NCBI GenBank assembly: GCA_965649115.1
Contig: CBFGJN010000013.1
Location: forward strand, 1-38,509
Length of the DNA stretch: 38,509 nt
From: a candidate division WOR-3 bacterium
GTDB lineage: Bacteria; Hydrothermota; Hydrothermia; LBFQ01; DSFT01
Direction of reading: 5' to 3'
Shown: piece by piece, positions 1-38,509 of the stretch
Position numbering within the stretch: position 1 is the stretch's first letter
Layout: each line of letters starts with the position of its first letter
Position numbers and translations under genes: made by a program
The notes under the pieces: generated by a model
Told to the model about the DNA's origin: nothing
Seen by the model: only the letters and a program-made list of their open reading frames with translations
The model's database searches: none

Positions 1-117
1 ATGGGGGGCGAAGCCCCCTAAAGCCGAAAAATGGGCATTTTAAAGGCGTAGCCTTTATTTCAGGGTGGGTGGGAAAACATAGAAATGATTATATTTCCAG
101 AATTATTGGACAAAGCA
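1..117 (+). repeat. Intergenic MITE-like element copy, right portion (truncated by window start)
   Basis: GGGGGC-GAA-GCCCCC hairpin, TAAAGGC-GTA-GCCTTTA hairpin, AGGGTGGGTGGG tract and terminal AATTATTGGACAAAGCA, all shared with the full copy at 38301-38505 (reverse). Confidence 0.9.
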
Positions 118-3893: not shown

Positions 3894-4061
3894 TGCTGTG
3901 TCCAATAATTCAGCTATGGGGGGCTTTAAATCAATAATTTCAAAAAATTTTCACAAGTCATTACAAAGCATTATTTTTGTGCTGTGTCTAGTAATTCTGA
4001 AAGTATCTATTTTTCGTCATTCTCCTCACACTGAAAATAAACGGACAGCTTGGACAAAGCA
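3894..4061 (-). repeat. Degenerate/nested copies of the intergenic element
   Basis: TIR-like TGCTGTGTCCAATAATT at 3894, TGCTGTGTCTAGTAATTCTGAAA at 3980, TGGACAAAGCA at 4051-4061. Confidence 0.8.
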
Positions 4062-5695: not shown

Positions 5696-5907
5696 TACTT
5701 GAGCCCTGTTGCTCTCCAAATGAAAAATGTTGTATAAAGTATGGAAAAACGAAAAAATTTTTTGGAAAGCAAACATATAAGTATCCAAATGAATTAAAAG
5801 AAAAAGTTATTGAACTTTATTTAAATGGTTATAAGATGAGAGAAATTTCAGGAATTTTAAAAATTCCTTTTTCAACGATAAGGAGGTGGATACATGAAAA
5901 GTTATGA
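5692..5907 (+). CDS. Small Cys-rich helix-turn-helix protein (IS1 InsA-like)
   Basis: CC...CC-KYGK...GKQ followed by YPNELKEKVIELY...REISGILKIPFSTIRRW HTH; overlaps both neighbours. Confidence 0.6.
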   Translation: MILEPCCSPNEKCCIKYGKTKKFFGKQTYKYPNELKEKVIELYLNGYKMREISGILKIPFSTIRRWIHEKL

Positions 5908-7315: not shown

Positions 7316-7756
7316 ATGAAAGATGGAAGAAATGAAGTGGCATTAAAGAGATTAAATTTAGCAAAGAGGTATTTTGAAAATGCTAAGGAAGAATTAAAAA
7401 AATCAACAATAGATAGAAAAAATGGAATATATGAAGATGTTAAATATGTATCATCTGCTTGTAGCAAGGCATACTTATCAGCACTTGAAGCCCTAAAATC
7501 AATTTTTTTACTAAAAATTTTTAAGGATGAAGAGGAATTGAAAAAAGCATTAAAAAGTAATGAGGGTTATAGTAATTATATTTCAAAACTTAACATAGGT
7601 AAAGATAGAGATAATTTAATGAAACTTTATAACGAAATTTATAAAATTCTTCATCTTGGTGGTTATTACAGAGAATTACAAAGTAAGAAAGCAATAGATG
7701 ATGGTTTTGAGAAAGTAGAAAAAATTATTAAAATTGTTGAAAACTATGTTAAGTGA
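7316..7756 (+). CDS. DUF5618-like / HEPN-fold helical protein
   Basis: AKRYFENAKEELK...YEDVKYV..AC..AY.SALEAL...LHLGGYY pattern, recognised from memory of the family. Confidence 0.55.
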   Translation: MKDGRNEVALKRLNLAKRYFENAKEELKKSTIDRKNGIYEDVKYVSSACSKAYLSALEALKSIFLLKIFKDEEELKKALKSNEGYSNYISKLNIGKDRDNLMKLYNEIYKILHLGGYYRELQSKKAIDDGFEKVEKIIKIVENYVK

Positions 7757-7769
7757 TTAATTGGTTAAT

Positions 7770-7874
7770 TTATTAGGGGATTTATGGGAGCGAAGTTTAA
7801 GCCGAAGGCTTATTTCGTAGGGTGGGTGGGAAATTATAGTAAAGTATATATTTTCAGAATTACTAGACACGGCA
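7770..7874 (+). repeat. Intergenic element copy (right portion)
   Basis: TAAGCC-GAA-GGCTTA, AGGGTGGGTGGG, terminal AATTACTAGACACGGCA. Confidence 0.88.
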
Positions 7875-7908
7875 AAACAGACCAATAATTATCCCTTAAA
7901 ATTTTCAA

Positions 7909-9600: not shown

Positions 9601-9690
9601 TAAAAAAGGCTTATTTTTAGGTTAAGAGTATAGTAAAATAAGGACTTCCAAAATTATTATGAAAAGCATCTTTATTTTGCATTACTGTTT

Positions 9691-9826
9691 ATTTATTGGG
9701 GGAATTGAGGGGAGCGAAGCCCCCCGAGGCATAAATATGGGCATTTATAAAGAAAGCAAAGCTTTATTCTCAGGGTGGGTGAGGAAATAAGAAATAATCT
9801 ATATTTCAGAATTATTGGACACAGCA
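9691..9826 (+). repeat. Intergenic element copy (right portion)
   Basis: GGGGAGC-GAA-GCCCCCC, AAAGC-AAA-GCTTT, CAGGGTGGGTG, terminal AATTATTGGACACAGCA. Confidence 0.88.
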
Positions 9827-9860
9827 CAAAAACTTTAAATTAAACCTTTAAAATTTTTAA

Positions 9861-11292: not shown

Positions 11293-11503
11293 TATGTCAA
11301 ATTAAAATTTTTAAAATTTTATAAGTTATTGAAAATCAATAATTTATTTAATTTAGCAAAATAAAATATCTTCAAAATGTCAAATTAATTTAATTTTATA
11401 AAGTTCCAATAAAAACGAGAATTTTATTAATTTATCAAATTAAAAATAGAAAATTTTAAATCGTCTCTTTGAGCTTAATTTTTCTATGCTTTAAAATTTG
11501 AAA

Positions 11504-13599: not shown

Positions 13600-14688
13600 A
13601 TGATAAGGGAAGATTTTCCAGAAGTATATTATCCGCATTCGGGAGAAGATGTAAAAATAGCAGTTATTGGTGTTGGTGGAGGAGGAACAAATGCTCTAAA
13701 CTACATGATAAAGAAAGGGATAGAAGGCGTAATAACAATTGCTGCTAATACAGATATTCAACACCTCGGAGATTCACCTGCTGAGTACAAATTACAACTT
13801 GGCAAAAGTTTAGCAAAAGGAAGAGGGGCTGGTGCTGATCCGGAAAAAGGAAAAAAAGCAGCAGAAGAAAGCATAGAAGAAATTAAAGAAATAATAAGAG
13901 ATGTTGATGTTGTAATAATAGCAGCGGGAATGGGTGGTGGCACGGGAACAGGAGCCTCACCTGTTATAGCAAAAATTTCAAAAGAAATGGAAAAATTAAC
14001 AATTGCAGTAGTAACAAAACCATTTACAAGTGAAGGACCAAGCAGAATGAAAAAAGCATTAAAAGGTATATCAGAACTTTCCCAAAATGTTGATTCAATA
14101 ATTGTAATATCTAATGATGAAGTTATAAAGAGAAAAGAATTAAAATTTATTCAAGCATTATCTCTTGCAGATGAAGTTTTATACAAAACTGTTAAATCAA
14201 TTGTAGATATTATCACAAAACCAAGCTATATAAATGTTGATTTAGAAGATGTGAAAACAATTTTAAGAAATAGTGGTTATGCTATTGTTTCAGAAGGTAT
14301 TGGTAGAGGTGAAAGAAGGGCAGAAGAAGCACTTAAAAAGGCACTTGAAAATCCTTTAATTGATAATGTAAAAAGCATACAAGGTGCAAAAGGTATATTA
14401 TTAAACATTCATTCAAGTCCAGAAAATAGTGAGCATTCAATAAAAACAGAAGAAGTTAATTATATTTTAACGGGAATTTACAACGCTGCTTCAAGGGGAA
14501 GAACTGATGTTGAAATTATTTTTGGATTTACATTTGATGATAGTTTAAATGATGAAATTAGAATTATTTTAATAGCAGCAGGAATGGATACAGTTAAAGT
14601 TTCTCATCAACAACAAAATCCTAACATTATAATTCCAAGATATAGAACTAATTCCTTTATTATTTCTGATGAAATAGAGGAGGCATGA
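13600..14688 (+). CDS. ftsZ: Cell division protein FtsZ
   Basis: GVGGGG, NTD, GGGTGTG tubulin signature, INVD T7 loop. Confidence 0.96.
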   Translation: MIREDFPEVYYPHSGEDVKIAVIGVGGGGTNALNYMIKKGIEGVITIAANTDIQHLGDSPAEYKLQLGKSLAKGRGAGADPEKGKKAAEESIEEIKEIIRDVDVVIIAAGMGGGTGTGASPVIAKISKEMEKLTIAVVTKPFTSEGPSRMKKALKGISELSQNVDSIIVISNDEVIKRKELKFIQALSLADEVLYKTVKSIVDIITKPSYINVDLEDVKTILRNSGYAIVSEGIGRGERRAEEALKKALENPLIDNVKSIQGAKGILLNIHSSPENSEHSIKTEEVNYILTGIYNAASRGRTDVEIIFGFTFDDSLNDEIRIILIAAGMDTVKVSHQQQNPNIIIPRYRTNSFIISDEIEEA

Positions 14689-15767
14689 TTATTGAAGAAG
14701 GCAAAGGTAAATTTATAAAGCCTGAAAAAAAAGGATTATTTTATAATCCAAGAGGAAAATTATCAAGAGAACTTGGAATAGCTATTTTAAGAGCTGAAAA
14801 AGAAATAAAAAATGATATTAGTGTTTTTGAATGTATGGCAGGTATTGGTTTTAGAACAATAAGGTACTATTTAGAAGCAAATATAAAAAACATTTGGGCA
14901 AACGAAGCTAACGAAGAAGCAATAAAAATTTTAGAAGAAAATTTAAAATTAAATAGTATTAATGATGTTAAAATTACTAACTTTGAAGCAAAAAAAATTC
15001 TATTGGAAAATGCACTAAATGGAAATAGATTTGATTTTATAGATTTAGATAGTTTTGGTTCTCCTTCTGAATTTATTTTTAGTGTTATAATGGCTCTTAA
15101 ATTGGAAGGTGTTATTTATTTTACTTCAACAGATGGATTTACACTATGTGGTTTGAAACAAAAAGCAAGTATTAGAAATTACGGTGTTCATTCAATAAAT
15201 AGTAAATTTTGTCATGAACTTGGTGCAAGAATTTTAATAAGCACATTTATGAAGATAGCAGGAAATTTAAATATGCATTTTGAACCTTTAATTAGTTTGT
15301 TTGATGGATATTCTTGGAGAATTGCATTGAGACTTAAAAGGGGTGTTGAGAATGCAAATTTTGATAAATTTGGATATGTTTTATATGAGCCAACAACAAA
15401 AGCTTTTAAAATTTTTAAAGATAATCATATTGAAGGTAAGGGATTAGTATCGGGACCTGTTTATCTTGGTGAAATTCATCAAAAACATTATATTGATAAA
15501 TTAATTGAGGTTTCAAAAGAATTTGATGATTTAAGAAAAATTCTTGAAAAAATTAAAAATGAAGAAAATGTCCCGTTTTTTTATGATTATCAAGAAATTT
15601 GTGATGTTATCTCTGTGAGCCCACCCCCAAGAAAAAAAATAATAAAAAAATTAAAAAACCTTGGCTACTTAGTAAGTGAAACTCATTTTAGCCCTTATGG
15701 AATAAAAACAAATGCGAATTATGAAGAATTTGTCAAAGTTTTAAAGATGTTAGTTGAAAAAAATTAA
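14685..15767 (+). CDS. trm1: tRNA (guanine-26 N2,N2)-dimethyltransferase, Trm1 family
   Basis: FYNP...SR, AGIGFRTIRY SAM motif, IDLDSFGSP, HELGARIL, THF.P.GIKTNA. Confidence 0.85.
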   Translation: MIIEEGKGKFIKPEKKGLFYNPRGKLSRELGIAILRAEKEIKNDISVFECMAGIGFRTIRYYLEANIKNIWANEANEEAIKILEENLKLNSINDVKITNFEAKKILLENALNGNRFDFIDLDSFGSPSEFIFSVIMALKLEGVIYFTSTDGFTLCGLKQKASIRNYGVHSINSKFCHELGARILISTFMKIAGNLNMHFEPLISLFDGYSWRIALRLKRGVENANFDKFGYVLYEPTTKAFKIFKDNHIEGKGLVSGPVYLGEIHQKHYIDKLIEVSKEFDDLRKILEKIKNEENVPFFYDYQEICDVISVSPPPRKKIIKKLKNLGYLVSETHFSPYGIKTNANYEEFVKVLKMLVEKN

Positions 15768-15770
15768 GAA

Positions 15771-15850
15771 ACTATTGATTTTATAGAGAGACTTATGGGG
15801 GGCGAAGTTCAAGCCAAAGGCTTATTTTTGGATGGTTGTGAAAATATATA
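15771..15850 (+). repeat. Degenerate intergenic element fragment
   Basis: TATGGGGGGCGAAGTTCAAGCCAAAGGCTTATTT resembles 7783-7815. Confidence 0.7.
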
Positions 15851-16260: not shown

Positions 16261-16305
16261 AGTTTTGAAAATTATAAAGTTGAATACACTATCTTTCTTC
16301 GGCAT

Positions 16306-16382
16306 AGGGGGGCAGAGCCCCCTCTAAGTTTTTTATAAGTTATTGATATTCAAGAACTTAACACTACTTACTAGACAAAGCA
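16306..16382 (-). repeat. Intergenic element fragment (left portion)
   Basis: GGGGGC-AGA-GCCCCC, TAAGTTATTGATATTCAAGAACTTA palindrome, TTACTAGACAAAGCA terminus. Confidence 0.85.
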
Positions 16383-19610: not shown

Positions 19611-21607
19611 AATTTAAAGATAACCTTAACCCATCTAATTAAAGCAATCAAGAAAACAATAAAAACGATAGATATATATATTGAAAGCACAAAAACATTT
19701 AAATAATCATTAAATATGACCCTTTTTGCAATATCAATTGATGGAATAGTTTGGGGTAATGAGTTATTTATTATAGCATCTTTTAAATAATTTGCATGTG
19801 CTAAAAATCCAATTTGAGGATTAGGATGGAATATCTTTTGAAGACCACCATAAGAGGTATTAAAAACTACAAAGAGCATTGGAATTGCTGTTATAAAAGC
19901 ATATCTTATTTTACCATTATTTATAAGATAAGTTGTTGCAGTTATTAATGCTAAACTTGCTAATAGCTGATTTGCTATACCAAATATAGGCCAAAATGTT
20001 TTAATCCCACCATATGGATCTACAACACCTGCGTATAAGAAATAACCCCAAAGTGAAACTGTTATTATTGTAGCAATAATTGAAGAAAATATAGAACTAT
20101 AATTTGATAAAGATTTTATTATTTTACCAAATAAATCGTGAAAAATATATCTACCAATTCTCGTTCCTGCATCAATTGTAGTTAAAATAAATAATGCTTC
20201 AAAAAGGATAATGAAATGATAAAAGAATGCAATAAGATGCTTTCCAAAAACATCTGAAAAAATTAATGCCATACCTATTGCTAAACTTGGTGCTCCACCT
20301 GTCCTTGATAAAATTGTTTTCTCTTCAATTGCTTTTGATAAACTTTCAATATCATCAGGAGTTATTTTAAATCCCCAAGAATTGATTTTATTTACAGCAC
20401 TTTCAATTGTTTTACCTATCTCAGATTGAGGTGAATTTATAGCAAAGTAAATGCCAGGTTCCATTGTAATAGCAGCAATCAAAGCCATAACTGCTACAAA
20501 CGATTCCATTAACATTCCACTATAACCTACAAATCTTGTATCATTTTCTTTATCAATAAGCTTAGGAGTTGTTCCTGATGAAACAAGTGAATGAAATCCT
20601 GATATTGCTCCACAAGCAATTGTTATAAATAAAAACGGAACCAAATCACCTTTCCAAACGGGACCATTACCGTTTATAAATTGAGTAATTGCAGGCATTT
20701 TTATATTAGGCAAAGACAAAAATATACCAATTGCCAAAATAATAACTGTTCCAATTTTTAAAAATGTGCTTAAATAATCTCTTGGTGCTAATAATAACCA
20801 AATTGGTAAAATGGAAGCAATAGCACCATATAAAATTAAACCAATAGCTAGTTGAGTTTCTGAAAATGTAAAGAACTTAGACAAATTAGGGTCAAGTGCA
20901 ATATATCTTCCAATTATTAAGCTAATTATTAGCATTATTATGCCAAATAAACTTGGTCCTATTACAGAACCTGGTTTAATTTTCCACATCCAAATACCCA
21001 TTATCATAGCTATTGGAATTGTCATTATAATTGTAAATGTTCCCCATGGACTTTCAAACAATGCTTTAACTACAACAAGAGCAAGAACCGCCATTAGAAT
21101 CATTAAAATTGAATATATTCCAATTAAAGATAAAATTCCTGCAAATTTTCCAAGTTCATCTGAAATAATTTCTCCTAAGGATTTGGCATTTTTCCTTGTT
21201 GAAATTATTAAAATTACCATATCTTGAACAGCACCTGCTAATATAACACCGAAAACAATCCAAAGTGTAGAAGGTAAATAACCCATTTGAGCAGCAAGAA
21301 CAGGTCCAACAAGTGGTCCAGCACCACTAATTGCAGCAAAATGATGACCCAAAACTACCCATTTATTTGTTGGAACAAAATCATAACCATTATTAAATTT
21401 GTGAGCAGGTGTTATATTATCATCATTTAATTTAAAAACATTATTTGCAATAAATTTACTATAATAGCGATAACCAATATAATAACTTGAAATTGCAAGA
21501 ACTAAAATCCAAGCAGCAGATATATTCTCTCCTCTATGAACAGCAAGAACAAATAAAGAAGAAAAAATTAAAATTGATAAAATAATTGGAATTATTAACT
21601 TTTTCAT
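19607..21607 (-). CDS. cstA: Carbon starvation protein CstA family transporter
   Basis: GHHFAAISGAGPLVGP, IACGAISGFH, TTIDAGTR. Start 21607 overlaps the upstream stop (ATGA). Confidence 0.93.
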   Translation of the reverse strand: MKKLIIPIILSILIFSSLFVLAVHRGENISAAWILVLAISSYYIGYRYYSKFIANNVFKLNDDNITPAHKFNNGYDFVPTNKWVVLGHHFAAISGAGPLVGPVLAAQMGYLPSTLWIVFGVILAGAVQDMVILIISTRKNAKSLGEIISDELGKFAGILSLIGIYSILMILMAVLALVVVKALFESPWGTFTIIMTIPIAMIMGIWMWKIKPGSVIGPSLFGIIMLIISLIIGRYIALDPNLSKFFTFSETQLAIGLILYGAIASILPIWLLLAPRDYLSTFLKIGTVIILAIGIFLSLPNIKMPAITQFINGNGPVWKGDLVPFLFITIACGAISGFHSLVSSGTTPKLIDKENDTRFVGYSGMLMESFVAVMALIAAITMEPGIYFAINSPQSEIGKTIESAVNKINSWGFKITPDDIESLSKAIEEKTILSRTGGAPSLAIGMALIFSDVFGKHLIAFFYHFIILFEALFILTTIDAGTRIGRYIFHDLFGKIIKSLSNYSSIFSSIIATIITVSLWGYFLYAGVVDPYGGIKTFWPIFGIANQLLASLALITATTYLINNGKIRYAFITAIPMLFVVFNTSYGGLQKIFHPNPQIGFLAHANYLKDAIINNSLPQTIPSIDIAKRVIFNDYLNVFVLSIYISIVFIVFLIALIRWVKVIFKL

Positions 21608-23040
21608 CTTATTTTCAATATCGGACATATAACCTCTTCAATTGTAATACCTCCATGCATAAAGTAGTTTTCATATTGTTTTTTAAATTTATGTTCTTGT
21701 GCCTTGAAAACAAAATAACCATAACCATCTGCAATACCAAATCTTTCTGAAATTTTAGGAAGTCCATAATCTTCCAAATTCTTAATCAAATAACCATCTT
21801 TACTCATAAACCTTAAACTATCTCCAAATTTAAATCTCAAACCTTCACTTAAATCATTACCACCACTAATAGCAATAGGTTTCTTTCCTATTATCCATCC
21901 ATGGTCAGTTGTTATAAAAACAACATAATTTTGTTTCAAATATCTTTCAATAACACCAATAATTTTGCTATCAATTAAGATAACATTTATAAGCTTTAAA
22001 ATTGTATCCAAACTTTTAATATCTCTCAAACTTTCAATATCCGCTCTTTGATGTAGAAATTCATCTAAAAAGTTTATAACATTTATTTCTATTTCCTTTC
22101 CCGATGGATTAATTTTTGAAACATCTTCAAAATGATTAATTTTTAAAATTCTATAATTTTTTGAAATTTTATTTTCTCTTAAAAATTCATCAAAAAGCTC
22201 AATTTCATGTAAGTTATTATTTAGGTATTCAGGATGTCTTTTGTAGATTTCCAAAGGTAATTTTCCTGAAAATAAAGCATTCCTTGAAAAAAGCGTAGAT
22301 GTCGGAATAATTGAAAAATAAAAATCAATTTCTATATTAAAGGAACTTGGAATTTCCTTTAAAAACAATAACATTTGGTCAATCCTAAAAGCATCAATAA
22401 TAAAAATTGAGACATTATTATAATTTATAAGCTTTTTCATTAAATTATGAGAAAATGTTTTTTCTTTTATGAGATGAGGATAATTTTCTATTAGCCATTT
22501 AGCAAACTTTTGATTTTGTGATTCAATTTCCAAATCAATAATTTCTCTATCATTTTCGTTTAATTTTATCCTCGTTTCAAACAATAATTTTGCTTTTTTA
22601 ATCCAATTTTCATAACTATCTTCAAGACTATTTATATAATTATAAATTTCACTAATTCCAATACCTAAAAATTTTCTCTTTATTTCTTCCTTTTTAATTT
22701 TATTAGAAATAGCTAAAATTTGTTCAATTCTTATAGGCTTTAAAATATAATCATAAACATCATTTCCTATTGCTTTCTCTATAATTTCTTTATCAGAAAT
22801 AGCAGTTAGCATAATAACTGGAACATTTGGCTTTATTGAATTTATAACTTTTAAAACCTCAATACCATCCAAATTTGGCATTTTGTAATCTAATAATATA
22901 AAGTCATAAGTACTTTCTTTAACTTTCTTAATTCCTTCAAAACCATTTTCAGCAGTTTCCACATCAAAACCTTCACTTTTTAATAATTCTATAACAGCAT
23001 TTAAATCATTTATTTCATCATCTATCCAAAGTATTCTCAT
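21604..23040 (-). CDS. Response regulator with PglZ/alkaline-phosphatase domain (PorX-like)
   Basis: REC domain (WIDDE, LLDYKMP, KP) plus IDAFR.DQ, PT.T..SRNALFSG, TTDHG, HGGITIEE. Confidence 0.85.
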   Translation of the reverse strand: MRILWIDDEINDLNAVIELLKSEGFDVETAENGFEGIKKVKESTYDFILLDYKMPNLDGIEVLKVINSIKPNVPVIMLTAISDKEIIEKAIGNDVYDYILKPIRIEQILAISNKIKKEEIKRKFLGIGISEIYNYINSLEDSYENWIKKAKLLFETRIKLNENDREIIDLEIESQNQKFAKWLIENYPHLIKEKTFSHNLMKKLINYNNVSIFIIDAFRIDQMLLFLKEIPSSFNIEIDFYFSIIPTSTLFSRNALFSGKLPLEIYKRHPEYLNNNLHEIELFDEFLRENKISKNYRILKINHFEDVSKINPSGKEIEINVINFLDEFLHQRADIESLRDIKSLDTILKLINVILIDSKIIGVIERYLKQNYVVFITTDHGWIIGKKPIAISGGNDLSEGLRFKFGDSLRFMSKDGYLIKNLEDYGLPKISERFGIADGYGYFVFKAQEHKFKKQYENYFMHGGITIEEVICPILKIR

Positions 23041-23109
23041 TTATAATTTTTGAAATTTTAAAGGACAATGAACTCTATTTAAAAACATCGTCAAGCTATG
23101 CCCTCAATT

Positions 23110-23172
23110 ACTGAAATATAGGCATTTATAATCCAAAAACTTATTTATAGAACGGGTGGGAAATAAAGACTA
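23110..23172 (+). repeat. Highly degenerate intergenic element remnant
   Basis: CTGAAATATAGGCATTTATAA...CTTATTTATAGAACGGGTGGGAAATAAAG aligns with 35332-35390. Confidence 0.55.
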
Positions 23173-23197
23173 ATTTTAATCCTTTAAAATTTAAAAT

Positions 23198-26029
23198 ATG
23201 ACAAAAATTTTAATTTCAAAAATTTACATTTTTATACTAAGAATTCTTGAAGCATTTATAATTTCCCTATCTTTTGCAATTCTCATTATAGCAATCTATC
23301 CAATTAATATCAAAATCGTTTCAGTTCTTTCAGCAATTCCATTTGCTATATATCTTTTAAGCTCGTTAAAATTTTTAAAAGATGAAGAAATAGCCTGGCT
23401 TTATGAATTTAAATACAAGGACTTAAATGAAAAACTAATAACTTATATTGAACTTAAATTAAAATCAATATATGAAAAAATCAATTTTAAAGCACTAAAT
23501 CCTTTCTCAATATACAAACCAAAATATGAATTACTTTTGTTTCTTGTATTTTCATTTTTACTTTTAATGTTTTCATTTAGTTTTAGAAAACCTTTATATA
23601 TTGCAAATTATGGCGAATATAAAAGAGTTGTTAAAATTTTTGGAAATGACGAATTTTTTTTAGGTGAAGATATTATTTTGAAAATAAAAAATTATAGTTT
23701 TTTAAAGGAAAAATTAACTCTAAAACCAACTAATTATTCTTTTGAAATTGAACCATTAAGTGAAATTATAGATACGATCAGAAACTTAGATGAAGGTAAT
23801 TATCAAATTGAATTTTTGGGGAAAAATATCTTTAATTTAAAAGTTTTTCAAAAGCCTGTAATTGATTCATTAATTATAAATGTTAAAACTCCTTATTTGA
23901 ACTTAGAACAATCGGTAAAAAATAATTTTGAAATTTCAGTAATTGAAGGAAGCAAATTAAATATAACTTTGTTTTCAAGTAGTTCAGATTCAATTAAGCC
24001 ATTTTCAAAAATATCATTAATTGCTACAAAGGATACTGAATTTGAATTTTACCTATATAAATCAAAAAAAATCCTTAAATATCCAACCAAATTAAAAATT
24101 TCAGTAATTAAAGATAATCCTCCTTTTGTAAAAATTCTATATCCCGAGAATTTCATACATTTGCCTGAAAACTATAAAATTCCTATAATAGGAATATCAA
24201 CAGATGATTATGGTTTAACGAAAATGGAGATTTATTTGAATGAAAAATTAATTTATAGAAAGAACTCAAATAATTTACTAAAAGACACTATTTTCTACAA
24301 TTTAGATTTAAGTTCAGAAAAACTGCTACCTGGCGATGAAATTAAAGTTTATTTAAAATCAACGGATTTAAAAGGACAAACAAGCTTTGACTATATAACA
24401 ATAAAATTCCCTACACTTGCTGAACAAATGAATTTATCTACAAAAGGTATTGCAGAAAGTGAGAAACAGTTAAAGGATTTAAGAGAAAAAATTGAAGATT
24501 TGGGAGACATTTTAAATAAGATGGATTCAAAAGAAGATTTAAATGCAATAAGTAAAGAATTAAAGGATGCTCAAAAAGAAATGGAAAAATTAAAAGAAAA
24601 AATTGAAGAAATAAGTCAAAAAATGAGTTTAGAACCTGAAATTCAAGAACAATTAAAAAGAATTTCAGAATTGTATGAAAAAATTTTAGATGACGAATTA
24701 AAGCAAATTTTAAATAGAATACAAGAAGCAATAAACAAGTTAGATAAAGAGGAAATTAAAAAATTACTTGAAAACACAAAAATAGATATTGAAAAATTGA
24801 AAAATTCCCTAAAAGCAACAGAATCAACACTTAGAAAATTCTATGAAGAGAAGAAGCTAAAAGAACTTTCAGAAAAACTAAAAGAAATAGCAAACAAGCA
24901 AGAAAATGTTAATGATAAAAGCTCACAAAATGAAATTACAAATGAACTTAAAGATGTTAGAGAAAATTTAAATGATATTTCAAAAACTATTGAAAAACCC
25001 TTTTCTGATAGCTTAAAGAATATATCAAGCGAATTAGAAAAAATCATAAATCAATCTGAAAATATAAGTGAAAACTGGCCAAATTCAAAAGGGATGTGTC
25101 AATCTAATGCTAAAAGTATAAGAGCTTTATCTCAGAAATTAGAAAATTTACAAAATCAACTTGTTGAAAGCAGAAAAGAAGAAATTATTAAAAAAATTGA
25201 AGCTTTAAGAAGGAGCTTAATTTTTATATCACAAAATGAAGAAGCAAATAATGAATTTGAACAAAGAGCAATTTTAAACGCTATTAAGATAGCAATTAGG
25301 GATTTTGAGGAATTAGCAAACATGAATTTTCTAATAACAATAGATATAAAAGCACATTTATATATGGCATTGGAAAATGCACAAGAAGTTTTGTTAAGAT
25401 ACAAATATAATGATTTTAATAGAGCTAAAAATTATAAAAATTCTGAAAAAAAGGAAATTTTAAGTGCAATTTTAAAACTCTACGATGCTCAAAATCAAGT
25501 TGCAAATTCAAGCTCTTCAAGTGGATATAGTGAAATGCTAAAAAAGATGGCTCAAACATTATCTAATATGCAATCATTAAACAATCAAAATCTTTCAGAT
25601 GATTTATTAAAACAAATAATGCTCCAACAAGAAATGTTAAAGAAAATGATTCAAGGAATTAGAGAAGGGATGGAAAAGACTGGGAATAAATACTCTGAAA
25701 AACTAAAAGAAATTGAAAAACAAATTGACGACTTAGAAAAAGAAATAAAAGATAAGAAAAAAATTGATAGGAGAATTATTGAAAAACAAAGAGAAATAAT
25801 GTATAATTTACTTTCAGCTTGGACAGGTTTAAAATCTGAAAATAAATCAGAAAAATTAGAAGCAGAAAGACCCAAAAATATAAAATATGAAGAACCGATA
25901 ATTTCCGAAAATATGATATATAGACAAAAAATTATTGAAATTTTAAGAAAAATTCAAAACCTTGAAATAGACAATTCTCAAAAGCAAAAACTTATAGAAT
26001 TTTATCAAAATCTTTTAAAATCATTTTGA
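23198..26029 (+). CDS. Large membrane-anchored coiled-coil protein (DUF4175-like)
   Basis: N-terminal TM helices, D.PP.V.I..P and DDYGL motifs, long coiled-coil C-terminal half. Confidence 0.7.
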   Translation: MTKILISKIYIFILRILEAFIISLSFAILIIAIYPINIKIVSVLSAIPFAIYLLSSLKFLKDEEIAWLYEFKYKDLNEKLITYIELKLKSIYEKINFKALNPFSIYKPKYELLLFLVFSFLLLMFSFSFRKPLYIANYGEYKRVVKIFGNDEFFLGEDIILKIKNYSFLKEKLTLKPTNYSFEIEPLSEIIDTIRNLDEGNYQIEFLGKNIFNLKVFQKPVIDSLIINVKTPYLNLEQSVKNNFEISVIEGSKLNITLFSSSSDSIKPFSKISLIATKDTEFEFYLYKSKKILKYPTKLKISVIKDNPPFVKILYPENFIHLPENYKIPIIGISTDDYGLTKMEIYLNEKLIYRKNSNNLLKDTIFYNLDLSSEKLLPGDEIKVYLKSTDLKGQTSFDYITIKFPTLAEQMNLSTKGIAESEKQLKDLREKIEDLGDILNKMDSKEDLNAISKELKDAQKEMEKLKEKIEEISQKMSLEPEIQEQLKRISELYEKILDDELKQILNRIQEAINKLDKEEIKKLLENTKIDIEKLKNSLKATESTLRKFYEEKKLKELSEKLKEIANKQENVNDKSSQNEITNELKDVRENLNDISKTIEKPFSDSLKNISSELEKIINQSENISENWPNSKGMCQSNAKSIRALSQKLENLQNQLVESRKEEIIKKIEALRRSLIFISQNEEANNEFEQRAILNAIKIAIRDFEELANMNFLITIDIKAHLYMALENAQEVLLRYKYNDFNRAKNYKNSEKKEILSAILKLYDAQNQVANSSSSSGYSEMLKKMAQTLSNMQSLNNQNLSDDLLKQIMLQQEMLKKMIQGIREGMEKTGNKYSEKLKEIEKQIDDLEKEIKDKKKIDRRIIEKQREIMYNLLSAWTGLKSENKSEKLEAERPKNIKYEEPIISENMIYRQKIIEILRKIQNLEIDNSQKQKLIEFYQNLLKSF

Positions 26030-26032
26030 ATG

Positions 26033-26239
26033 TGCCCTGTCCAATAATTCTAAAAATATATTTTTTCTTTATTTTCCCACCCACCCTGAGAGTAAAGCTC
26101 CGCTTTATAAATACCCATATTTCGGCTATGGGGGGGGCGAAAGCCCCCCATTAAAACCCCCCTTAAATTCAATAATTTCTTTGAAAATTTTGCAAGTTAT
26201 TGATTACCAATTACTTAGCACCATTTATTGGACAAATCA
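26033..26239 (-). mobile_element. Full-length MITE-like element (207 bp)
   Basis: TIRs TGCCCTGTCCAATAA / TTATTGGACAAATCA with all internal modules. Confidence 0.75.
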
Positions 26240-26248
26240 TTTTAAATG

Positions 26249-26428
26249 TGGTGTGTCTAGTAATTCTGAAAGTATCTATTTTACTATATTTTTCCCACCC
26301 ACCCTAAATATAAGCGGATGGCTTAAAAGCTTCACCCCCTTAATTCCCTCCATTAAATCAATAATTTCCTTAAAAATTTTATAAGTCCTTGATAATCAAG
26401 GGCTTAACACTATTTACTGGACTAAGCC
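26249..26428 (-). mobile_element. MITE-like element copy (internally deleted)
   Basis: TGGTGTGTCTAGTAA ... TTACTGGACTAAGCC; CCCACCCACCCT tract and double IHF-like palindrome. Confidence 0.7.
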
Positions 26429-26539
26429 TACGGCTTATAACTTCGCCCCCCTTAAAACCCCCCGTAAAATTAATAATTTTCTTAAATTTTTGTAAGTTGT
26501 TGATAATCAAGGACTTAAAATTATTTATTGGACAAAGCA
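26423..26539 (-). repeat. Partial element copy fused to the previous one
   Basis: TAAGCC-TAC-GGCTTA hairpin, palindrome 26493-26517, TTATTGGACAAAGCA end. Confidence 0.8.
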
Positions 26540-26544
26540 CAAAA

Positions 26545-26760
26545 TAATTGATTATCAATAAATTATAACAATCTCAAAGAAACTATTGAACTGATGGGGG
26601 GAATTATTGGGGGGCATTCGCTCCCCAAAACAAAAGATGGGGTTTTTTAAAGCCGAAGGCTTAATCACAGGGCGGGTGGGCAAAATATAGAAATAATTAT
26701 ATTTTCAGAATTGCTAGACCCAGCAGGAAATTATTGATTTTATGGGGGTGAAACCCCCAT
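26545..26760 (+). repeat. Element copy (+ orientation, ends 26725) followed by a hairpin fragment
   Basis: AAGCC-GAA-GGCTT, AGGGCGGGTGGG, AATTGCTAGACCCAGCA, then ATGGGGGT-GAA-ACCCCCAT. Confidence 0.8.
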
Positions 26761-29534: not shown

Positions 29535-29593
29535 AGCTCCACCCCCCAAGTCAAAATTTTAAAGGACAAAAAAATGCTTTAAAATTTAAGGCC

Positions 29594-34038: not shown

Positions 34039-35013
34039 TTAGTACTTAAAAACCATTGCTCCCCATGTAAAACCTGCCCCAAATGAAACAATTAAGACAT
34101 TTTGTCCTCTTTTTAATAAGCCAGCATCTAATAATTCATCAATAGCTATTCCAATAGAAGCAACAGAAGTATTTCCATATTTATGTATATTTACATAAAC
34201 TTTATCTTTGGGAACATTTAATTTTTCAGCAGTAGATTCTATAATTCTTATATTAGCTTGATGAGGAATAAGCCAATCTATCTCATCGGGACTTAATTCT
34301 GATTTTTCTAAAACTTTTAAGCAAGCATCAGCCATATAGCTAACAGCATATCTGAAAACCTCTCTTCCTTGCATTCTAACACCATGAATTCTACTTTTTA
34401 AGGTATATATACTTGCAGGCTCTCTACTTCCACAAGAAGGAAATTTTAATAAATCCCCAAGCGAACCATCTCCTCCCAAATAACTTGAAATAATTCCAGG
34501 TTCATTACTCCTTGATAAAATAAATGCACTAGCTCCATCACCAAATAATACACAAGTAGTTCTATCCGTCCAATCCATATACCTACTTAATGTTTCAGAA
34601 CTAACTACAAGGATGTTATTATAAATTCCAGATTCAATTAATCCTCTTGCCATTTCAAGAGCATAAATAATCCCAGGACAACCAGCTTCTAAATCAAAGC
34701 AAGGAACTTTTATATTTAATAGGCTTGCTATTAAACAACCTGTTGCTGGAAACGGCATATCAGGTGTATTTGTTGCACATATTATGAACTCTATATCTTT
34801 TGGTTCCATATTAGCTCTTTTTAAAGCTTTTAAACTTGCTTTATAACCCATTATTGATGAAGTTTCGTCTTTACCAGCTATCCTTCTTTCTTTAATTCCA
34901 CTTCTTTCAGTTATCCACTCATCACTTGTTTCAACAATTTTTTCCAAATCGTAATTTGTTAAAACTGAAATTGGCGTGTAGGAGCCAACTGAAACAATTT
35001 TAGCATAAGCCAT
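34039..35013 (-). CDS. fabH: 3-oxoacyl-ACP synthase III
   Basis: TSDEWI.ERSGI.ERR, AGCPG, PHQAN.RI, GNTS, GAGFTWG. Confidence 0.95.
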   Translation of the reverse strand: MAYAKIVSVGSYTPISVLTNYDLEKIVETSDEWITERSGIKERRIAGKDETSSIMGYKASLKALKRANMEPKDIEFIICATNTPDMPFPATGCLIASLLNIKVPCFDLEAGCPGIIYALEMARGLIESGIYNNILVVSSETLSRYMDWTDRTTCVLFGDGASAFILSRSNEPGIISSYLGGDGSLGDLLKFPSCGSREPASIYTLKSRIHGVRMQGREVFRYAVSYMADACLKVLEKSELSPDEIDWLIPHQANIRIIESTAEKLNVPKDKVYVNIHKYGNTSVASIGIAIDELLDAGLLKRGQNVLIVSFGAGFTWGAMVFKY

Positions 35014-35047
35014 CTGAAAATTTTAAAGTTTAAGTTAAAATAAATTT

Positions 35048-35236
35048 TGCTGTGTATAGTAATTATTGTTAAGTGCTTTAATATAAATGACTTATAAAAA
35101 CTTTTTTAGAATTATTGTTTTAATGGGGCGTAGCCCCCGAGGCAAAAGATGGGTATTTTTAAAGCGGAAGGCTTATTCATAGGGTAGGTGGGAAAAATAA
35201 GAAAAAATTATATTTTCAGAATTACTAGACAAAGCA
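35048..35236 (+). mobile_element. Full-length MITE-like element copy
   Basis: TIRs TGCTGTGTATAGTAATT / AATTACTAGACAAAGCA. Confidence 0.75.
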
Positions 35237-35245
35237 GACATAAAA

Positions 35246-35424
35246 TGCTTTGTCCAGTAAATAGTGTTAAATGCTTGATTATCAATAACTTATAAAAATT
35301 TAAAGGAAATTATTGATTTTTGCCCCCTTGCCGAAATATGGGCATTATAAGCCGAAGGCTTATTCATAGGGTGGGTGGGCTAAATATGGAAAAATAAATG
35401 ATTTTAGAATTATTGGACAAAGCA
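35246..35424 (+). mobile_element. Second tandem MITE-like element copy
   Basis: TIRs TGCTTTGTCCAGTAA / TTATTGGACAAAGCA; palindrome 35268-35292. Confidence 0.75.
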
Positions 35425-35458
35425 ATTTTTAAAATTCAAGAACTTTAAAATTTACTAT

Positions 35459-36157
35459 TTGAAAATTTTACACTTATATTATGACTTGATGAGCACCTAT
35501 GGAGATAGAGGAAATGTAATTATTCTTTTCAAAATAGCAGAGCACTTGAACTTAAAGCCAAAGCTTATAAAATACAGAATTGGAGATAAAATAAATGAAA
35601 AGGTTGATTTTATATTTATAGGAGGTGGTGAAGATTGGCAACAAGAAATTATTTATAATGATTTTAAGAATTTAAAAAACTATATTTTTGAACACGTTGA
35701 AGAAAACAAACCATTACTTGCCATATGTGGTGGATATCAATTATTAGGTAAGTTCTACAAAACTATTGAAGGTAAAATTATTGAAGGCTTAGGGATATTT
35801 GATATTTGGACAATAGCAGGGAAAAAAAGATTAGTAGGTAATTTAATTATTGATAGTTTTTTAGGGAAAATTGTAGGTTTTGAAAATCATTCAGGTAGAA
35901 CTTACATAAATGGTTCTCCACTTGGTAAGGTTATAATGGGAAGTGGTAATAATGGCGAAGACAAAACAGAAGGCTATATTTATAAAAGAGCAATCGGAAC
36001 TTATATGCACGGACCTTTCTTATCAAAAAATCCCGAAATAGTAAAATTTATAATCAATTCAGTTTTCAATGATGAAATAAATTTCAATTTTGATTTAGAA
36101 TTAAAAGCTAAAATGAAAGCTTTAAGTTTTAAAAGACTAAATGAAGGTAGAATTTAA
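35459..36157 (+). CDS. gatD: Type 1 glutamine amidotransferase, GatD/CobQ-like
   Basis: HLY.DLMSTYGDRGN, ICGGYQLLG, GFENHSGRT, GTYMHGP.LSKNP. Confidence 0.82.
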   Translation: MKILHLYYDLMSTYGDRGNVIILFKIAEHLNLKPKLIKYRIGDKINEKVDFIFIGGGEDWQQEIIYNDFKNLKNYIFEHVEENKPLLAICGGYQLLGKFYKTIEGKIIEGLGIFDIWTIAGKKRLVGNLIIDSFLGKIVGFENHSGRTYINGSPLGKVIMGSGNNGEDKTEGYIYKRAIGTYMHGPFLSKNPEIVKFIINSVFNDEINFNFDLELKAKMKALSFKRLNEGRI

Positions 36158-37107
36158 TTTTTAATAGGTGTTTTTTCAATTATTTCATTTAGAATTAATT
36201 CCTTAGTTATGTTATCTGCTTCTGCCAAAAAGTTTAAAATAATTCTATGTCTTAAAACATCAAAAAAAATGTACCTAACATCCTCTGTTGTGGCAAAATC
36301 TTTTCCTTCAATGAATGCTTTTGCCTTTGCTCCAAGAATTAAAAATTGACTTGCCCTTGGCCCTGCCCCAAACTGAATGTACTTTTTAACAATTTCCAAA
36401 TCAGTTTCAGAAGGTCTGGTTTTTCTAACAAGATTTATAGCATATCTAATAACATGATCACCTATAGGAACCTGTCTAACTTTCATTTGAATTGTTAGAA
36501 TATCATCCTTATTTAATACTTTCTGAGCTTCATAATTTTGTTCAATAGTTGTTCTCTTTACTATCTCTATCTCATTTTCAAATGTTGGATAATCCAAGAT
36601 AATTTCCATCATAAATCTATCTACCTGTGCTTCCGCAAGCGGATATGTTCCTTCTTGTTCTATTGGATTTTGAGTTGCTAAAACGAAAAATGGTTCTTCA
36701 AGTTCATAAGTTTTACCAAGAACAGTCACTCTTCTTTCCTGCATTGCTTCAAGTAATGCTGATTGCGTTTTAGGAGGTGTTCTATTTATTTCATCTGCTA
36801 AAATAATGTTAGCAAATATAGGACCTTTTACAAACTGAAAGAACCTTCCATTAGGACCTTCCTGAATAATTTCAGTTCCAAGAATATCCATAGGCATTAA
36901 ATCAGGTGTAAATTGAATTCTGCTAAATTTCAAATCAAGAACCTCAGATAAGGTTTTAACCATAAGTGTTTTAGCAAGTCCTGGAACACCAACAAGTAAA
37001 ACATGACCTTTTGAAAACATACAAATTAAAATTTTATTTATTACATCTTCATAATTTACAATAACTTTTGAGATTTCCAATTTCAATCTATTTATTTTTT
37101 CAATCAT
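36154..37107 (-). CDS. MoxR-family AAA+ ATPase
   Basis: GVPGLAKT, RIQFTPDLMP.D, DEINRTPPKTQSALLEAM, NPIEQEGTYPL. Likely start ATG 37107. Confidence 0.93.
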   Translation of the reverse strand: MIEKINRLKLEISKVIVNYEDVINKILICMFSKGHVLLVGVPGLAKTLMVKTLSEVLDLKFSRIQFTPDLMPMDILGTEIIQEGPNGRFFQFVKGPIFANIILADEINRTPPKTQSALLEAMQERRVTVLGKTYELEEPFFVLATQNPIEQEGTYPLAEAQVDRFMMEIILDYPTFENEIEIVKRTTIEQNYEAQKVLNKDDILTIQMKVRQVPIGDHVIRYAINLVRKTRPSETDLEIVKKYIQFGAGPRASQFLILGAKAKAFIEGKDFATTEDVRYIFFDVLRHRIILNFLAEADNITKELILNEIIEKTPIKN

Positions 37108-38269
37108 AATTAAATTCAAAATGTTTTAAAAATTCTTTTAAGTAAGATAAGAATTTTCTTCCATCAAAAATTTCATAAGGCATAAAAACTCCATAGCTCT
37201 CATATTTTAAAACATCAATTTCTTTAATTATTCCAAGTACTGAAATAACGCAACCATAACCTGTCATTTTTTGCATAGCTGTCCATCTATCATCATGTAG
37301 TATAATTCCATTAAATTCCTTAGTTGTATTTCCAGAACTTCCAATAACCTTCATTAGGACAATATCTTGATTAGTTTTTGGAATAATTTTTTCGAGCATT
37401 TGAATTGTTGTACTTTTCAAACCTCTTACCTCGTCAAAAAATCCAAGGTTAAATAGTGTTTTTATAACTTCATAATGACCCTTATATCTTATCGTCTTAT
37501 ATTCTAAATTTCTACAAGAGCAATCAAATGGCATAAGGGAAGCACCATCAGAAGTTATAATAGCTTCTAAATCAGAGATATAATAATATCCATTTTTGTA
37601 GTTTAACTTTTGAAAATTTTTCAACTTTTCATAAATTTCTGAACTTTTAAATTTTATCTCTATTTCCTCAATATCTGTCAATAGTCCTTGATTAAAAATA
37701 ATATTACTATTTTTTCTTGAAACCGACAAATCTGTATATTCTTGGATAAGACCTTCAATTGACCAGGTTGTAGCATATCTTAAAGGTCCTCCAACATTAG
37801 GATTCACTGGCAAACCACCTGTATATAAATAAACATTATCAAAACCCTCTTCAATAAATAATTTACCTATTATATTTATAATTCCAGGTGCTAATCCCGT
37901 TTCAGGAACAACAATAACCTTTTTTGACTTTGCAAGGCTATTATAAGACTTTTGTTTTAGTGTAGTCCAAGTGCTTTGGCCCAGATCTACATAGTTAGAA
38001 CCAACTTCAATTGCTAATTGCGTATAATACAAGTTATTATAAAATGTTGTGGCATTAATAATAATATCAGGTTTGAGCTTGTTTAAAGCATCATAAATAA
38101 TTTCATTTAATTTTCTTAAAGACTTCACATTTTCAAATTGTTTTATAGTTTCTTCTTCTCTATTTATATTAATATCATAAACAAAAATATCAAAATTTTT
38201 AAATTCATTTAATTGTTCTAAAATTGCATAACCCATTCTTCCTAAACCAAAAATTACAATTTTCTTCAT
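37100..38269 (-). CDS. Saccharopine dehydrogenase / lysine 6-dehydrogenase family protein
   Basis: GLGRMG, YVDLG, GLAPG, GGLP...Y..TWSIEGLIQEY, YKTIRYKGH, AM.KMTG. Confidence 0.85.
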   Translation of the reverse strand: MKKIVIFGLGRMGYAILEQLNEFKNFDIFVYDININREEETIKQFENVKSLRKLNEIIYDALNKLKPDIIINATTFYNNLYYTQLAIEVGSNYVDLGQSTWTTLKQKSYNSLAKSKKVIVVPETGLAPGIINIIGKLFIEEGFDNVYLYTGGLPVNPNVGGPLRYATTWSIEGLIQEYTDLSVSRKNSNIIFNQGLLTDIEEIEIKFKSSEIYEKLKNFQKLNYKNGYYYISDLEAIITSDGASLMPFDCSCRNLEYKTIRYKGHYEVIKTLFNLGFFDEVRGLKSTTIQMLEKIIPKTNQDIVLMKVIGSSGNTTKEFNGIILHDDRWTAMQKMTGYGCVISVLGIIKEIDVLKYESYGVFMPYEIFDGRKFLSYLKEFLKHFEFNYD

Positions 38270-38300
38270 AAGTTTGAAAAGTTTAAAGCTAAATAAATTT

Positions 38301-38505
38301 TGCCTTGTCTAATAATTCTGGAATTATTTATTTTTCTTTATTTTCCCACCCACCCTATATTCAAGGCTTCGCCTTTAAAATACCCATATTTCGGCTTTGG
38401 GGGGCGAAGCCCCCCTAATAATCCCCCCAATAAATCAACAATTTCCTTAAAAATTTTATAAATTATTGATTATCAATCGCTTAACAATAATTATTGGACA
38501 AAGCA
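38301..38505 (-). mobile_element. Full-length MITE-like element (205 bp), best-preserved copy
   Basis: TIRs TGCCTTGTCTAATAATT / AATTATTGGACAAAGCA (15 of 17 match); all internal modules present. Confidence 0.8.
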
Positions 38506-38509
38506 ATTT

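Follow-up and report, generated by a model that had tools for sequence, protein, structure and literature searches.

The TnGBS ICEs, the ISLre2 family and the ISKra4 group have been described as inserting in one orientation and at a set distance from housekeeping promoters, 15–17 bp upstream of the −35 box and with the right inverted repeat on the promoter side; contact with the polymerase initiation complex was proposed there, not shown (PMC3942029). The element that we describe here from a candidate division WOR-3 bacterium is likewise oriented, with its right end toward the promoter, and likewise keeps a fixed distance. However, the transposases of TnGBS, ISLre2 and ISKra4 are Mutator-like, whereas the protein associated with our element, P0001, belongs to the unrelated IS5 family. 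Those elements lie upstream of a −35 box, whereas ours lies 21–22 nt from a −10 hexamer in promoters with little −35 signal. In addition, the WOR-3 genome holds hundreds of MITE copies in polar stacks, whereas a MITE goes unmentioned in the main text of PMC3942029.

In its build, the WOR-3 element fits known classes. IS5-family insertion sequences of the NF033579/PF13737 type likewise combine a DDE transposase of ~300 aa with short terminal repeats and a 9-bp duplication. IS903 makes a 9-bp duplication and prefers a palindromic target motif (PMC2577343, Table 1), while the P0001 clade lacks this preference and has a promoter-anchored, oriented target instead. In the part of PMC10969869 consulted, Correia, ERIC and RUP/BOX clusters and Sulfolobus SM1–4 are ~200-bp intergenic elements with terminal repeats and hairpins; Correia contains an IHF site, ERIC reaches up to 711 copies in Photorhabdus, and pneumococcal repeats bunch. 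The WOR-3 MITE has 730 copies in 1.85 Mb, and a fixed distance to a promoter box and ordered stacks are unreported for those families in the same part of that source. IS30 and IS911, which are of another family, insert beside their own inverted repeats, as stated in the consulted part of PMC9333248; WOR-3 elements also abut each other's ends, possibly as a second mode, but their spacers are full 9-bp duplications and their first insertions appear to be set by the promoter. In the openly readable literature, we found no report of a promoter-anchored IS5-family element or MITE. The element described here is thus of a familiar class, but its target rule, which could be measured precisely, is unusual, and we found no precedent for this rule reported in the IS5 family.

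The window, that is, the whole stretch of 38,509 nt analysed here (contig CBFGJN010000013.1 of assembly GCA_965649115.1), had been described in an initial annotation as holding about 14 copies of a non-coding, modular element of ~205 nt. A profile HMM trained on 164 near-full copies from the genome returned 14 matches in the window at the same places, with positions 3894–3971 recognized by eye only. When 38301–38505 was used as a BLAST query against the organism's own genome (1.85 Mb, 99 contigs), as that annotation had suggested, 707 pieces were recovered, 186 of them at least 170 nt long. The HMM found 730 full or partial matches, which sum to 98,228 bases or 5.3% of the genome with overlaps kept in, and none in the reversed genome. 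Two further impressions from the window hold across the genome: copies avoid genes, with only 9 of 730 midpoints inside ORFs of at least 150 aa (which make up 84% of the genome), and the assembly tends to break at copies, as 88 of 198 contig ends have a match within 60 nt. The modular build also recurs. In 117 full-length copies, with 1–2 mismatches allowed, the 5′ TIR was found in 106, the 3′ TIR in 115, AGGGTGGGTGGG in 113 and GCCGAAATATGGG in 76; the consensus ends of the 17-bp terminal repeats agree with each other at 15 of 17 bases.

The focal full-length copy (38301..38505, minus strand; HMM 195 bits) has a 98% identical counterpart at one end of contig C89. Its strand is given in the orientation of the parent IS, so that its 5′ end is at 38505 and its promoter-facing 3′ end at 38301; the right flank is cut by the contig end. 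Fifteen nucleotides from the 3′ end, in what we call the minor register below, lies a −10-type box, TAAACT (38280..38285, minus strand), behind which the ATG at 38269 opens a saccharopine-dehydrogenase-family gene (Pfam). Other copies end exactly 22 nt from a TAAAAT box on the plus strand: the 3′ half of a copy at 2..117, cut by the contig start (box 140–145, ZnuA-family gene from 153), and HMM-supported 3′ parts at 7791..7874 (box 7897–7902, AMP-binding enzyme gene from 7909) and 9684..9826 (box 9849–9854, lipoyl-synthase-like gene from 9861). At 35048..35424 (plus strand; HMM 35048–35236 and 35246–35424), two copies are stacked head to tail, 9 nt apart, and the inner end lies 21 nt from TAAAAT at 35446–35451, followed by an amidotransferase-family gene from 35459. 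Decayed material includes two eroded or internally deleted pieces at 3894..4061 (minus strand; HMM 3980–4055), which lie between divergent genes with no strong box at the expected distance, an internal fragment at 15762..15847 (plus strand; 22 bits), a 5′ part with the IHF-like palindrome and first hairpin at 16293..16382 (minus strand; 55 bits), and a fragment at 23095..23185 (plus strand; 30 bits) just upstream of the box before the ORF at 23198. The largest cluster of the window, four copies at 26033..26725 (HMM 26033–26238, 26249–26427, 26423–26539 and 26543–26725; three one way and one opposite), is an exception to the rule: it lies between convergent genes and has no strong promoter box at either outer end. 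Its copy at 26033–26238 has a 9-bp duplication with one mismatch.

The window also holds genes of separate interest. A short frame at 5696–5893, flanked by two metal-related genes, resembles by eye a helix-turn-helix fragment of an IS-type protein, and a DUF5618 gene at 7316–7756 has several copies 78–80% identical (C61, C22, C50 and C7). Directly behind ftsA-ftsZ, positions 14685–15767 encode a tRNA dimethylguanosine methyltransferase of the Trm1 family, whose members are mostly archaeal or eukaryotic, while 21604–23040 encodes a response-regulator receiver fused to a PglZ domain, a protein that we take to be PorX-like.

Target duplications support the identification of the element as a MITE. 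Both ends are present in 214 copies and the flanks are readable in 202; of these, 89 are bordered by exact 9-bp duplications and 11 by 8-bp ones, while shuffles gave a mean of 0.8 and a maximum of 3. The rate changes with copy age, from 18 of 29 copies with a neighbour at least 98% identical to 8 of 35 in the most diverged class. Flanks were unmatched in 92 of 204 full copies, 7 of which can be explained as belonging to a unit of several copies with a single outer duplication (control mean 0.08). Movement of stacks as composite units was consequently set aside as minor, since many "foreign" spacer matches are contig-end joins, and the remaining unmatched flanks may stem from recombination, deletions or misjoins. 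A second family at contig ends carries the terminal repeat of the element, comprising 16 identical 3′ ends and 10 5′ ends of an IS, all located at or near contig ends; the assembly does not contain the IS body. In six cases a 5′ end and a 3′ end have a 9-mer in common, as expected of collapsed copies. Using 56 residues of the frame opened in the 5′ ends, we retrieved P0001 (300 aa), which matches the ORF start in these ends and whose last residues are encoded in the 3′ ends. At the 5′ end, 22 of the first 26 bases are the same in MITE and IS, and at the 3′ end 16 of 19; apart from the ends, no longer stretch of the MITE interior matches the IS end regions.

P0001 scored 245.5 bits on NF033579 (IS5 family; cut-off 140) and contains PF01609 and PF13737; among named relatives, ISHysp1 of Hydrogenivirga comes closest (43% identical). 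We take this type of IS to belong to the IS903 group of IS5; in a quick tree, P0001 and three relatives formed a separate long branch. The modelled transposase resembles DDE transposases and integrases generically, with only generic DDE matches in Foldseek and no adaptor-like extra domain apparent in the model, and a sequence search of solved structures with the transposase alignment gave 0 matches. Other partners were considered: a Mutator-type transposase, our first guess from the 9-bp duplication, was discarded because PF06782 and PF00872 were not found in the genome (G000, 94.5% complete); a search for the PF13737 family gave no match in the genus, and the match examined from genus g3 (L008) is a 150-aa ORF and not the partner IS. 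The exact 23-mer of the IS 5′ end had 0 occurrences in metagenome contigs. From the common ends, the duplications and P0001, which links the IS ends, it seems nearly certain that the element is a non-autonomous MITE of this IS with its 300-aa IS5-family transposase; a non-autonomous MITE was the first of the identities proposed in the initial annotation.

Metagenome runs containing most of a 10-kb stretch of the genome are hot-spring samples, and one of them (X1) holds long pieces without differences to the genome. A strain ~95–97% identical breaks at the same sites as the genome assembly. In a comparison of contigs from four runs with C18:9900–29800, we found no clean same-species empty allele among the 15 of 300 joints listed; short joints, which look like motif-driven mismatches, were left out.

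The same annotation had also offered a REPIN-like origin and a domesticated chromosome-structuring element, and the interior of the element gives such readings some material. REPINs depend on a HUH-type RAYT partner gene and are not known to make a long target duplication. In hairpin 2, five inner positions are paired in 113–117 of the 117 full copies, and pairing at one of the pairs is kept through a swap from C-G (74 copies) to G-C (39 copies), with GNA loops (GAA in 92, GTA in 13). IHF-like boxes, which match the E. coli IHF consensus, occur in 109 of 117 full copies, at 5.5 per kb compared with 0.21 outside elements, and the genome has three HU/IHF-family genes. These features would suit a domesticated structural or regulatory repeat. 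However, 9-bp duplications together with a DDE partner indicate IS5 rather than a HUH/RAYT enzyme, and the loop of hairpin 1 is found in either orientation (e.g., GAA 18, TTC 11), which fits hairpin-driven mutation and not selection on RNA. The distribution also argues against domestication as the primary explanation: near-identical young copies exist, and among 41 genomes searched good matches were found in G002 (many) and G003 (two), weak ones in G004, G014 and G020, and none in the other 35, including the same-genus G001. The element is thus patchy within the genus, and in G001 and G004, where good matches are lacking, the orthologous promoters work without it. We regard a domesticated repeat or a REPIN as the least credible of the readings considered. 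Apart from one tRNA, no Rfam family reached the gathering score in the window, and a generic scan for sigma70 promoters and terminators of 34900–38509 placed no terminator inside element copies. A role of the hairpins and IHF-like boxes in transposition or insulation is possible, and the boxes could influence DNA shape. The IHF-like palindrome at 11304..11345, upstream of murB, has no terminal repeats, so the module also exists outside the element. A double IHF-like palindrome is also present in a 300-bp AT-rich repeat (G000 C5:28118–28381, C26, C33, C41 and C74), one copy of which borders a CRISPR array and is likely its leader; the CRISPR arrays on C1, C5, C32, C35 and C66 belong to one 30-nt repeat family with 8–40 repeats each, and some MITE copies adjoin leader-like DNA.

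The position of copies relative to a −10-type box is the central result of this study. Distances are the number of bases that separate the terminal repeat from the first T of TAAAAT, with the duplication included. When the hexamer had to match exactly, the distance was 21–22 nt for 166 of 297 free 3′ ends, compared with 4 of 112 free 5′ ends. With a weight matrix built from unoccupied sites, 175 of the 297 free 3′ ends lie at 21–22, 58 at 12–16 and 13 elsewhere, while 51 are boxless; only 3 of the 112 free 5′ ends have a box at 21–22. The 3′ end is hence the promoter-facing end. The main peak is narrow, with only six free 3′ ends at 20 or 23 and almost none at 23–40. The IS shows the same spacing: among its 16 3′ ends, 10 lie at 22, 1 at 21, 3 abut a MITE terminal repeat at 9 nt and 2 do neither, and 0 of 10 5′ ends lie at box spacing. 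A pattern search in G002 gave 50 matches, 21 of them at 22, 4 at 21 and 4 at 23 (29 of 50 at 21–23); counted from coordinates, 15 of 50 lie at 12–15 (10 at 14 and 3 at 15), and 8 fall outside distances 14, 15 and 21–23. The same search found none in G001, G003, G004 and G005. Sister IS in metagenome contigs, whose transposases are 61–88% identical to P0001 over the matched parts, have five of six readable 3′ ends at 21–22, TATACT and TATAAT box variants included, and one at 14 (L054), in a count that leaves out one locus without a 3′ end and one chimeric-looking locus.

Distant relatives behave differently. None of 23 lies at promoter spacing, neither the six copies of an IS in G013 nor 17 others. 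The G013 IS (48% identical over the N-terminal part, similar ends, from another family of the order; L116–L127) can serve as a natural control: its target has A at +3 in 11 of 12 cases and at +4 in 10 of 12, an IS903-like palindromic motif, whereas no such enrichment at +3/+4 was found in our genome, where the duplicated 9-mers are AT-rich without a consensus.

The boxes belong to a promoter type of the host in which a long −10-only box (SCTTTAAAATTTT) is followed by a start codon or a tRNA 5–12 nt behind it. The gap between box and ATG is mostly 6–11 nt, and the box also precedes most tRNA genes; window examples are at 140–145, 7897–7902, 9849–9854 and in the region of 29580–29585. We infer that the TAAAAT box is a promoter, and the host genes look near-leaderless. 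Such promoters resemble the −10-motif mode, or −10-only leaderless promoters, of Deinococcus-Thermus, as outlined in the part of PMC12340547 consulted. At 210 empty promoters we found at most a slight excess of TTG at −35 spacing (spacers 16–17), and the region-4 helix of sigma70 looks intact despite the little −35 signal; the closest named relatives of the primary sigma factor (66–72%) are labelled WOR-3. Of 431 start-linked promoter sites, 192 lie under an HMM match and a remnant of the terminal repeat is present at another 29 (1–5 at control offsets), so that about half of these leaderless-type promoters appear to carry the element. Twenty orthologous stretches were fetched from G001–G004 and 18 were aligned; by eye, the box is kept in 17 of these, and one stretch has a short element remnant. 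Orthologous promoters in other species are empty of the element, but they differ in their upstream neighbours and are therefore not clean pre-insertion alleles. Upstream neighbours switch between species right before the box, even where there is no element (G001–G004, L096–L114), and the promoters look like rearrangement breakpoints.

A narrow spacing could in principle arise after insertion. If copies landed at random or in AT-rich DNA, selection could have kept those upstream of promoters, and with long ORFs alone taking up 84% of the genome, the copies that survive have to be intergenic; the AT-rich 9-mers without consensus agree with this. However, such selection would not be expected to yield a two-base peak, almost nothing at 23–40 and an end bias of 175:3, and identical, hence recent, IS copies already show the spacing (11 of 16), which makes selection hard to invoke. 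The G013 IS and the 17 other distant relatives, which have no such spacing, also speak against it. This explanation is already largely refuted and, in our judgement, extremely unlikely, whereas targeting at the moment of insertion is highly probable on the patterns in these genomes.

What measures the distance is less settled. The transposase might read DNA directly, binding the CTTTAAAATTTT motif or a bent A-tract one-sidedly and cutting at a fixed distance, in which case promoters would be struck only because the motif is the promoter, and insertions in genes would have been purged. The motif is indeed long and nearly invariant at occupied sites, the occupancy of start-linked sites climbs with motif score (1/44, 7/36 and 139/549), and the modelled transposase, having no adaptor domain, would also suit such binding. 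On the other hand, insertions keep the same spacing at the variants TATACT, TATAAT and TAAACT, and motifs inside elements are unoccupied (0 of 45 strong ones, 0 of all 200), although this control is imperfect in that one flank position of most such motifs departs from the promoter consensus. In ORFs, too, strong motifs are nearly free of insertions, with 3 of 438 occupied, even among the possible sites of young copies; here, avoidance and purging of insertions cannot be separated. Because of the box variants and the empty motifs inside elements, we favour promoter-bound polymerase over direct readout, which we consider unlikely together with its corollary of purged insertions. That the polymerase is the ruler is, from these comparisons, somewhat better than an even proposition.

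Copies also accumulate at single sites. The 730 matches fall into 455 loci, 184 of which are multi-copy, and in 149 of these all copies are on a single strand; gaps between stacked copies are 9 nt in 92 of 108 measurable cases. Local tandem duplication was rejected as the origin of stacks, as the nearest neighbour is in the same locus for only 1 of 693 copies; for the other 692 it is at another locus, which indicates that each copy in a stack came from its own insertion. Of the 127 single-strand stacks that are clear of contig ends, 107 have a higher score in the copy beside the promoter than in the one farthest out, and copies with a neighbour at least 95% identical number 37/127, 12/127 and 0/39 at stack positions 1, 2 and 3. 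Counted on substitutions in the first 60 nt alone, the polarity is weak (23 vs 15, p = 0.08), so the gradient is mainly one of truncation. At one locus (C93/C43), an old MITE is followed by an IS, then a young MITE and then the promoter, and one 9-mer recurs at three of the junctions. The initial annotation had mentioned neither the 9-bp duplication nor the polarity of clusters, nor that copies keep a fixed distance and orientation relative to the box.

Stacks could alternatively grow by IS30-like insertion beside existing ends, with a few founders near promoters and later copies targeting terminal repeats. An older element lies behind 13 of 14 duplicated copies in the 12–16 register compared with 38 of 53 in the main one (p = 0.16), a weak hint that the minor register represents end-adjacent insertion; the three IS 3′ ends that abut a MITE are compatible with it, and a dual specificity is described for IS30 in the consulted part of PMC9333248. 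However, 15 of the 53 duplicated copies in the main register have no element behind them, the IS at 21 nt in C3 duplicated the last 9 nt of an older end closer to the box, the common distance of the founders is left unexplained, and, within the minor register itself, the sister IS at 14 weighs against it. We therefore find end-adjacent insertion plausible as a second mode and very unlikely as the main one. Near-identical copies mix registers, so the minor register does not mark a subfamily of the element. A hybrid promoter with a −35 hexamer from the terminal repeat was dismissed for the main register, where the spacer would be 26–27; in the minor register it would be 17–21.

As the best explanation, then, we propose promoter-anchored, oriented insertion of the MITE by an IS5-family transposase, guided by polymerase and leading to polar stacks, a reading that we hold to be probable as a whole. 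On the sequence evidence, the 300-aa DDE transposase mobilizes the MITE in trans; it would make a 9-bp staggered cut at a fixed distance from the −10-only box with the element's 3′ end toward the gene, in a statistically evident main register at 21–22 nt from TAAAAT and a minor one at 12–16 nt. Taking TAAAAT as the hexamer at −12 to −7 would put the duplicated 9-mer at about −34 to −26, the slot of the −35 element in other bacteria. As these promoters have little −35 signal, insertion would spare both box and gene, and because the 9-mer is duplicated, the geometry would be restored, so that the next copy could land in the same place and push older copies outward. Spacers and decay suggest that the polar stacks came from such repeated landing. 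The ruler would most likely be promoter-bound RNA polymerase–sigma70 or the DNA shape that it imposes.

More tentatively, an IS5 clade in hot-spring WOR-3 bacteria may have lost its palindromic target, come to dock on RNA polymerase–sigma70 and filled the unused −35 slot, which would make it a second, independent bacterial origin of transposition guided by the transcription machinery, akin, if true, to yeast Ty3. Its MITE would have turned about half of the promoters into ordered records of insertion, furnishing them with IHF-like boxes and, where copies lie in the short register, with a −35-like hexamer. On the reading that we prefer, a single 300-aa enzyme from a non-Mutator family would target promoters with two-base precision, and since close relatives that do not target promoters are available for comparison, the mechanism is testable with small parts. 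Such an enzyme suggests a gene-sparing integration tool. For the organism, promoter-directed insertion would explain how a compact genome tolerates 5% mobile DNA, and for this uncultured lineage the copies would mark promoters and give the relative order of insertions at each one.
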